This document shows positions 4,092-4,402 of a stretch of 4,649 bases of DNA, piece by piece. The notes under the pieces are model-generated. The model worked only from the letters and a program-made list of their open reading frames with translations. It had not been told where the DNA came from and did no database searches. The stretch's first letter is position 1. Each line of letters starts with the position of its first letter. The stretch is from a virus (Duplodnaviria; Heunggongvirae; Uroviricota; Caudoviricetes), in the IMG/VR virus record IMGVR_UViG_2706794670_000004; one strand, given 5' to 3'. The translations under genes were made by a program, and so were the position numbers.

Positions 4092-4168
4092 GGCCCTTTA
4101 GCTCAGTTGGTCAGAGCGAGCGACTCATAATCGCCAGGTCGCTGGTTCAAGTCCAGCAAGGGCCACCA
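4092..4168 (+). tRNA. tRNA with CAU anticodon, most similar to tRNA-Ile2 (lysidine type, ileX/ileZ-like) rather than elongator Met
   Basis: Cloverleaf folded by hand: acceptor GGCCCTT/AAGGGCC, D-stem GCTC/GAGC, anticodon loop CTCATAA (CAT at 4126-4128), T-loop TTCAAGT, discriminator A, encoded CCA. The sequence is close to E. coli ileX as recalled. Confidence 0.8.
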
Positions 4169-4169
4169 A

Positions 4170-4246
4170 CCACCACTAGCTCATCCGGATAGAGCATCAA
4201 CCTTCTAAGTTGACGGTGCGAGGTTCGAGTCCTCGGTGGTGGGCCA
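4170..4246 (+). tRNA. tRNA-Arg (anticodon UCU, decodes AGA)
   Basis: Acceptor CCACCAC/GTGGTGG, U8, D-stem GCTC/GAGC, anticodon stem TCAAC/GTTGA with loop CTTCTAA (TCT at 4204-4206), T-stem CGAGG/CCTCG with T-loop TTCGAGT, discriminator G, encoded CCA. It starts 1 nt after the preceding tRNA. Confidence 0.85.
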
Positions 4247-4248
4247 GC

Positions 4249-4324
4249 GCCGACTTAGCTCAGCAGGCAGAGCAACTGACTTGTAATCAGTAGGTCACCA
4301 GTTCGATTCCGGTAGTCGGCACCA
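4249..4324 (+). tRNA. tRNA-Thr (anticodon UGU), thrU-like
   Basis: Acceptor GCCGACT/AGTCGGC, D-stem GCTC/GAGC, anticodon stem ACTGA/TCAGT with loop CTTGTAA (TGT at 4282-4284), T-loop TTCGATT, discriminator A, encoded CCA. One A-C mismatch in the T-stem. It closely resembles E. coli thrU as recalled, except in the D-loop. Confidence 0.8.
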
Positions 4325-4327
4325 TAT

Positions 4328-4402
4328 GCGGGCATCGTATAATGGCTATTACCTCAGCCTTCCAAGCTGATGATGCGGGTTCGATTCCCGCTGCCCGCTC
4401 CA
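4328..4402 (+). tRNA. tRNA-Gly (anticodon UCC), glyT-like
   Basis: Acceptor GCGGGCA/TGCCCGC, anticodon stem TCAGC/GCTGA with loop CTTCCAA (TCC), T-stem GCGGG/CCCGC with T-loop TTCGATT, discriminator T, encoded CCA. It appears identical or nearly identical to E. coli glyT as recalled. Confidence 0.85.

Follow-up and report, generated by a model that had tools for sequence, protein, structure and literature searches.

The four tRNA genes near the 3' end of this phage DNA raise the questions of what kind of element they form, where they came from, and what they could do for the phage. The window, i.e., the whole stretch of DNA that was analysed, is 4,649 nt long and belongs to the IMG/VR virus record IMGVR_UViG_2706794670_000004 (Caudoviricetes). 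In this work, the array was found to be a known and ordinary kind of lambdoid prophage tRNA cluster and not a new type of element, and its gene calls, homologies, position, distribution, and match to codon usage were directly observed. We consider it probable, with considerable confidence, that the array is a compact operon of four predicted functional tRNAs in an Escherichia/Shigella lambdoid (phage 21/Stx-phage-like) prophage, and that it serves to supplement codons. Relatives compared with the window are designated by L numbers.

The array and its place between Q and the lysis genes

Exactly four tRNA genes were called in the array by ARAGORN (Table 1), with the coordinates and anticodons that a preliminary description had read from the letters alone. 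The same four genes were scored by the Rfam tRNA model with 56.4–70.5 bits (E-values from 1e-10 to 2e-14), the gathering score of this model being 29 bits. The sequence also bore out the encoded CCA ends of all four genes and the described spacing of 1–3 nt, since the spacers are 1, 2, and 3 nt long (A at 4169, GC at 4247–4248, and TAT before the Gly gene). At a permissive threshold, the Rfam search around the array returned only the four tRNAs and chance-level hits. A minus-strand ORF of 61 aa (4354–4539) overlaps the tRNA-Gly gene and was taken as spurious. The allele of the window is the most common array allele and keeps a perfect cloverleaf.

Table 1. Position and supporting evidence of the features located in the window.
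Feature	Coordinates	Strand	Evidence and remarks
DnaB-type helicase	195-1586		
RusA	1840-2211		
Late antiterminator Q	2180-2587	+	Pfam PF06530 (Phage_antitermQ), E 2.7e-52
P1 immI-like antirepressor module	2592-3631		c4-a1b1/isrK 77.5 bits, C4 antisense RNA 71 bits, sRNA-Xcc1 77.4 bits, Ant
ORF6N-domain antirepressor (Ant) gene	3062-3631		
Intrinsic terminator-like hairpin and T-run	3978-4003 (hairpin 3978-3999)	+	scan
Sigma-70 promoter-like site, TTTGCA-18-TATTAT (or TTGCAG-17-TATTAT)	4053-4082	+	scan 9/12; ends 9 nt before tRNA-Ile
tRNA-Ile2 (CAU; predicted AUA decoder after lysidine modification; ileZ/ileY type)	4092-4168	+	ARAGORN; Rfam 70.5 bits; CCA encoded
tRNA-Arg (UCU; AGA/AGG decoder; phage argN-type body)	4170-4246	+	ARAGORN; Rfam 56.4 bits; CCA encoded
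tRNA-Thr (UGU; thrU-like)	4249-4324	+	ARAGORN; Rfam 69.8 bits; CCA encoded
TAT spacer, Thr to Gly	4325-4327	+	invariant mark of the Thr-Gly pair
tRNA-Gly (UCC; identical to host glyT)	4328-4402	+	ARAGORN; Rfam 64.9 bits; CCA encoded

The Q protein of the window gives, in addition to its Pfam assignment, a distant match to the phage 21 Q structures 6P18/6JNX (E 3e-7). The array had been placed downstream of Q, and it does lie 3' of this gene, but not immediately, because the P1 immI-like module of about 1 kb and a run of Ns are situated between them. The module follows Q directly and contains a promoter-like sequence (TTGACC-18-TATATT), and the layout of Q and the Ant module resembles the antQ-isrK-anrP region of Salmonella Gifsy-1. 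The run of 256 N (3664–3919) represents a scaffolding gap, and the contig ends on its two sides overlap, as positions 3649–3662 and 3920–3933 are one 14-nt perfect palindrome, TTTACGATCGTAAA. An exact 53-mer over the Ant/palindrome junction had no hit among genome or metagenome contigs. By searching IMG/VR with a 44-mer, 12 contigs were found that match the window across the gap junction with contiguous flanks; most of them are 100% identical to the window, and those spanning the junction in full are 99.7–100% identical to both halves. A real insert under the N-run was rejected, since the flanks are contiguous in every two-piece E. coli match listed.

The downstream part was read in L034, an IMG/VR contig 100% identical to the window, in which the array is located between Q and the lysis cassette on the same strand. 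About 680 nt of non-coding sequence containing several terminators separates it from the gene of a phage-21 S-type holin, behind which lie those of lysozyme, Rz, an HNH nuclease, and TerL. The order Q, tRNA genes, and holin is also present in annotated E. coli prophages. Homology with L015, L017, L028, L032, and L035 ends exactly at the 3' end of tRNA-Gly (4403), so the array marks a mosaic joint between phage modules. Four Chi sites (GCTGGTGG) were noted in the window at 1115, 2413, and 4036 (plus strand) and at 3425 (minus strand), against 0.2 expected, and none of 200 shuffles reached four. The site at 4036–4043, 50 nt 5' of the array, is kept without change in five diverged relatives.

The array is common and already annotated, as it was found in many E. 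coli genomes and in other genera, and the same four tRNAs are annotated by PGAP in public genomes. Of 5,426 complete E. coli genomes, 870 (16%) contain the fused Thr-TAT-Gly junction, which is also present in six phage records. The four-slot array, counted where at least 80% of the window's array was covered, is present in 603 E. coli genomes, and 588 of these records fall in the 90–95% identity band, with UUU in slot 2 in those sampled. The best array match reaches at least 99% identity in 10 E. coli records, at least one of which is 100% identical over the whole array. The Thr-Gly pair was also found in Shigella flexneri, Citrobacter braakii, Enterobacter hormaechei, and E. ruysiae, sometimes as the pair alone. 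A search of a literature collection on ileZ/argN/argO or thrU/glyT in prophages found nothing relevant.

Origin of the four genes

The first gene carries a CAU anticodon, and ARAGORN labelled it 'Met' from the anticodon alone. This label was rejected by comparing the tRNA bodies: the gene matches ileZ of the Stx2 phage (reference Stx2a_F349) at 74/77 positions (96%), host ileY at 71/77 (92%), and ileX at 69/77, but metT/metU only at 54/78 (69%). The pairs C4-G69 and C5-G68 of the acceptor stem are used by TilS to separate Ile2 from Met tRNAs. Both are present in the gene (GGCCCTT...AAGGGCC), whereas metT has T4 and A5. Identical copies are labelled tRNA-Ile by NCBI PGAP in RefSeq genomes. From its ileY/ileZ-like body, these two acceptor pairs, and the PGAP label, the gene is assigned as an Ile2 (AUA) tRNA of the ileX/ileY family, for which dependence on lysidine and charging with isoleucine are predicted. 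In the IMG/VR contig L033, unrelated sequence, apparently the end of an insertion sequence, begins inside the 3' part of this gene.

The Arg gene is closest to the phage gene argN (64/77 in the Stx2 phage), followed by host argU (58/79) and phage argO (46/77). It shares with argN the length and the unusual C1-G72 acceptor end; the anticodon is UCU in the former and UCG in the latter. The slot-2 anticodon differs among prophages (UCU, UCG, and UUU). In most E. coli genomes with the four-slot array, judging by those sampled, slot 2 is UUU on an argN-type body. The UUU variant (L008 2595–2671, L009 2607–2683) has C33 in place of the near-universal U33, together with mismatches in the D-stem and T-stem, and it is annotated as tRNA-Lys by PGAP in some genomes and left uncalled in others. 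It may be either a working Lys tRNA or a decaying gene.

The ileZ-argN-argO array of Shiga-toxin phages (933W/Stx2 phages) is among the closest known systems. As the preliminary description had proposed, it occupies the same position (L011), i.e., the slot from Q to the downstream late genes, with the same orientation, short spacers, and encoded CCA ends. Its first two genes are homologous to those of the window, and the same promoter-like hexamers are located upstream. On the other hand, its argN carries UCG instead of UCU, and argO stands third where the window has Thr-UGU and Gly-UCC in slots 3 and 4; argO matches the Thr gene at only 57/77 positions. Moreover, the Stx2 phage array is situated upstream of stx2, while no toxin genes follow the array described here, which has the non-coding stretch with terminators between it and the holin.

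The Thr and Gly genes had been described as resembling host thrU and glyT, and the resemblance proved to be close. The Thr gene is identical to K-12 thrU at 74/76 positions, the sole differences being U16C and U20C in the D-loop, and the Gly gene is identical to K-12 glyT (75/75), so the dissimilarity to the host genes that would have spoken against the proposal was not found. A Thr copy in an E. ruysiae prophage is identical to thrU (76/76). The pair keeps the order and orientation of the K-12 thrU-tyrU-glyT-thrT operon, but it is without tyrU, thrT, tufB, and the host promoter, leader, and trailer, and its spacer is 3 nt long instead of 209 nt. This spacer is TAT in all 13 loci examined, from at least five species of four genera. 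In the host operon, T follows thrU and AT precedes glyT, so that a clean loss of tyrU and its spacers would leave CCA-TAT-G. With four possible splits of three bases, such a junction would be matched by chance about once in 16. No homology to the host operon beyond the 3-nt junction was found upstream of Thr or downstream of Gly. By comparing all four genes, a gradient of host identity is observed (Gly 100%, Thr 97%, Ile 92%, and Arg 73%), and a more recent host origin of Thr and Gly fits this gradient.

Thus, it is likely that the Thr-Gly pair is host-derived and was copied in a single, old event from an enterobacterial thrU-tyrU-glyT operon with loss of tyrU. The array would accordingly be a mosaic in which an ileZ-argN-type pair like that of Shiga-toxin phages is linked to this Thr-Gly pair, the latter having been passed on between prophages as a module since its origin. 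The donor species of the pair cannot be named because thrU and glyT are so conserved. The capture of host sequence that had been suggested is upheld by the near-identity, the gene order, and the TAT junction, but it did not take place in this phage, as the spacer is invariant in 13/13 loci and the junction is shared by 870 E. coli genomes. Less likely, the missing flank homology and the packing of CCA ends against the next 5' ends would reflect a capture of mature tRNAs via a cDNA step. We see even chances for the wider reading, in which Thr-TAT-Gly is a cassette of single origin with exact loss of tyrU, circulating in lambdoid prophages of several enterobacterial genera either alone or on an ileZ-argN scaffold with an anticodon-switching slot 2. 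If this were true, tRNA arrays of prophages would come about through the shuffling of cassettes and the editing of anticodons, in step with the codon demand of phage and cargo.

Post-Q tRNA genes (Asn-GUU and/or Thr-UGU) are also known from phage 21, Sf6, ST64T, and SfI, and Thr-UGU has been linked to an excess of ACA codons in the phage (PMC3636060). These genes share with the window the position after Q and the Thr-UGU decoder, but their Thr genes are shorter (73 nt in SfI) and without a Gly partner, and none of them was among the megablast matches to the Thr gene of the window. Because they are shorter and gave no megablast match, they are not close relatives of this gene. The logic of the array is that of the T4 cluster, in which AUA-Ile, Arg-UCU, Thr-UGU, and Gly-UCC are among eight tRNAs with very short spacers; these are cut out by host RNase P and decode codons ending in A that the host seldom uses. 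T4, however, is virulent, and several of its tRNAs are without an encoded CCA. No sequence match of T4 to the tRNAs of the window was obtained in the searches run, so the T4 sequences are considered unrelated.

Transcription and processing

The transcription units, processing, and charging of the array, as well as the benefit to the phage, were inferred from the DNA sequence. A weak promoter just upstream of the array had been described, and the scan found it (Table 1). With 9/12 matches, such sites are no commoner here than in shuffled sequence. Its −35-like and −10-like hexamers, separated by a variable spacer, are nevertheless kept in place in diverged arrays, including that of the Stx2 phage (TTGCAA-17-TATTAT). 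Since the hexamers are conserved in place across diverged lineages, this site is most likely the array's own candidate promoter.

The terminator that the preliminary description had seen upstream of the array is present as a hairpin followed by a T-run, but the proposed separation of the array from late transcription does not follow from it. The hairpin is part of a 125-nt block (3920–4044) that stands after Q or Ant in relatives, with 82–97% identity in L001, L003, L009, and L010, and further plus-strand terminators are located between the array and the holin. Because of this conserved post-Q block and the additional downstream terminators, the hairpin looks like a terminator that is read through under Q antitermination. 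The simplest reading is that antiterminated transcription would cross it after induction. In two other Q contexts, the order is Q, promoter, short leader, terminator, second promoter, and tRNA genes. A five-way alignment of the block 3920–4044 showed no canonical sigma-70 promoter that could serve as the Q-dependent late promoter (pR') for this type of Q, so the array could also lie upstream of the true late promoter. An alternative candidate is a promoter-like sequence farther 3', which precedes a strong terminator next to the holin. In L031 and L036, two IMG/VR contigs that are otherwise nearly identical, the terminator hairpin (equivalent to window positions 3975–4012) has been cleanly deleted, which would join Ant transcription to the tRNAs.

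Under the preferred reading of a candidate array promoter supplemented by antiterminated transcription, the four genes would be made as one precursor, most likely starting at the conserved promoter that lies about 10 nt 5' of the array. Polymerases that pass the upstream terminator under antitermination would probably add transcript after induction. In E. coli, it is established that tRNA precursors are processed by RNase P and 3' exonucleases, modified by enzymes such as TilS, and charged by synthetases. Host RNase P is thus expected to cut each 5' end, exonucleases to trim the trailers of 1–3 nt to the encoded CCA, and TilS and other enzymes to modify the tRNAs before charging by host synthetases.

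Codon usage and competing explanations

Codon usage was compared between a related complete prophage, VL40 (52 CDS, 10,464 codons), and 42 K-12 genes (14,790 codons). By relative enrichment, the top seven of 59 codons in VL40 are AGG, AGA, AUA, CGG, GGA, ACA, and GGG, in this order, and all of them except CGG, i.e., six of seven, are read by the four array tRNAs. By absolute excess, ACA and GGA rank first and second. The enrichment is repeated in the window's own five ORFs and in the ORFs of L034, with Fisher p values from 5e-2 to 3e-11. The weakest value, 5e-2, was obtained for AGA in the ORFs of the window, and no codon has a p above 2e-4 in the full set of L034 ORFs. AAA, taken as a control, shows no enrichment in either set. 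A comparison of AUA and AGA usage in late genes and in the host had been proposed beforehand; both codons are indeed among the three most enriched, but the late structural genes show a smaller excess than the early genes. The excess is largest in cargo genes such as ipaH. Because it is larger in early genes, tRNAs made only late would come too late for part of the demand. The array tRNAs would raise the supply of decoders for AUA, AGA/AGG, ACA/ACG, and GGA/GGG, codons that the phage uses two to five times more than the host core genome, and this supply could be of benefit. The codon match fits codon supplementation, as a correlation only.

Rescue of infection from tRNA-cleaving defences by phage-encoded tRNAs is known in other phages, and the array could accordingly replenish host tRNAs that are cleaved or depleted by anticodon nucleases or toxins. 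Several toxin-antitoxin genes are located near the array in prophage relatives, and the changes of the slot-2 anticodon between UCU, UCG, and UUU could reflect changing targets. However, the Gly gene is identical to that of the host and the Thr gene differs at two D-loop positions, so these tRNAs would not escape a nuclease that cuts their host counterparts and could help only through extra dosage. Moreover, such a role does not predict the close match of the four anticodons to the gap in codon usage, and we know of no nuclease specific for the set Ile2-CAU, Arg-UCU, Thr-UGU, and Gly-UCC. We therefore regard this explanation as improbable. It is also doubtful that the Thr-Gly pair, or the whole array, is passenger DNA, that is, neutral DNA left behind by illegitimate recombination with the host chromosome and kept at a recombination joint. 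The homology breakpoints that coincide with the 3' end of tRNA-Gly in several relatives and the conserved Chi site upstream would be expected of such a remnant, as would the damaged copies in relatives (G42U/U43C in L001 and L002, A14C in L009, and an extra G in L008), which include visibly damaged Thr genes, and one copy cut by an IS element. Since some relatives carry damaged Thr copies, selection on the array is not uniform. On the other hand, the commonest allele has a perfect cloverleaf, and compensatory double changes were found in the acceptor stems of both Gly (C6-G to U6-A in L009, L010, and L019) and Arg (A3-U70 to G3-C70 in L010), which argues for selection on tRNA structure. A neutral remnant would also hardly be expected to reach 16% of complete E. 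coli genomes, to recur in several genera with its spacer unchanged, or to carry anticodons matching the phage codon excess.

Integration into tRNA genes is widespread among temperate phages, which carry a portion of such a gene, so the genes could in principle be attP-type fragments serving as integration-site homology. The example of SfI, which integrates into thrW (PMC3636060), is of this kind. The layout of the window is different, as the four genes are complete with their 5' halves, the array lies between Q and the lysis genes, well away from the end of the prophage with the integrase gene, and the host thrU/glyT locus is intact in array-bearing genomes. This explanation is rejected by the layout and is hardly credible.

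Under codon supplementation, which we prefer, the prophage would bring its own decoders for AUA, AGA, ACA, and GGA and could raise the expression of phage and cargo genes rich in these codons. The practical value of the array is small; it illustrates clearly how a pair of host tRNA genes can be taken into a phage cluster. In the VL40 prophage, an ipaH-type effector gene (L022 7141–8784) was observed to use AUA, AGA, ACA, and GGA even more than the phage genes.
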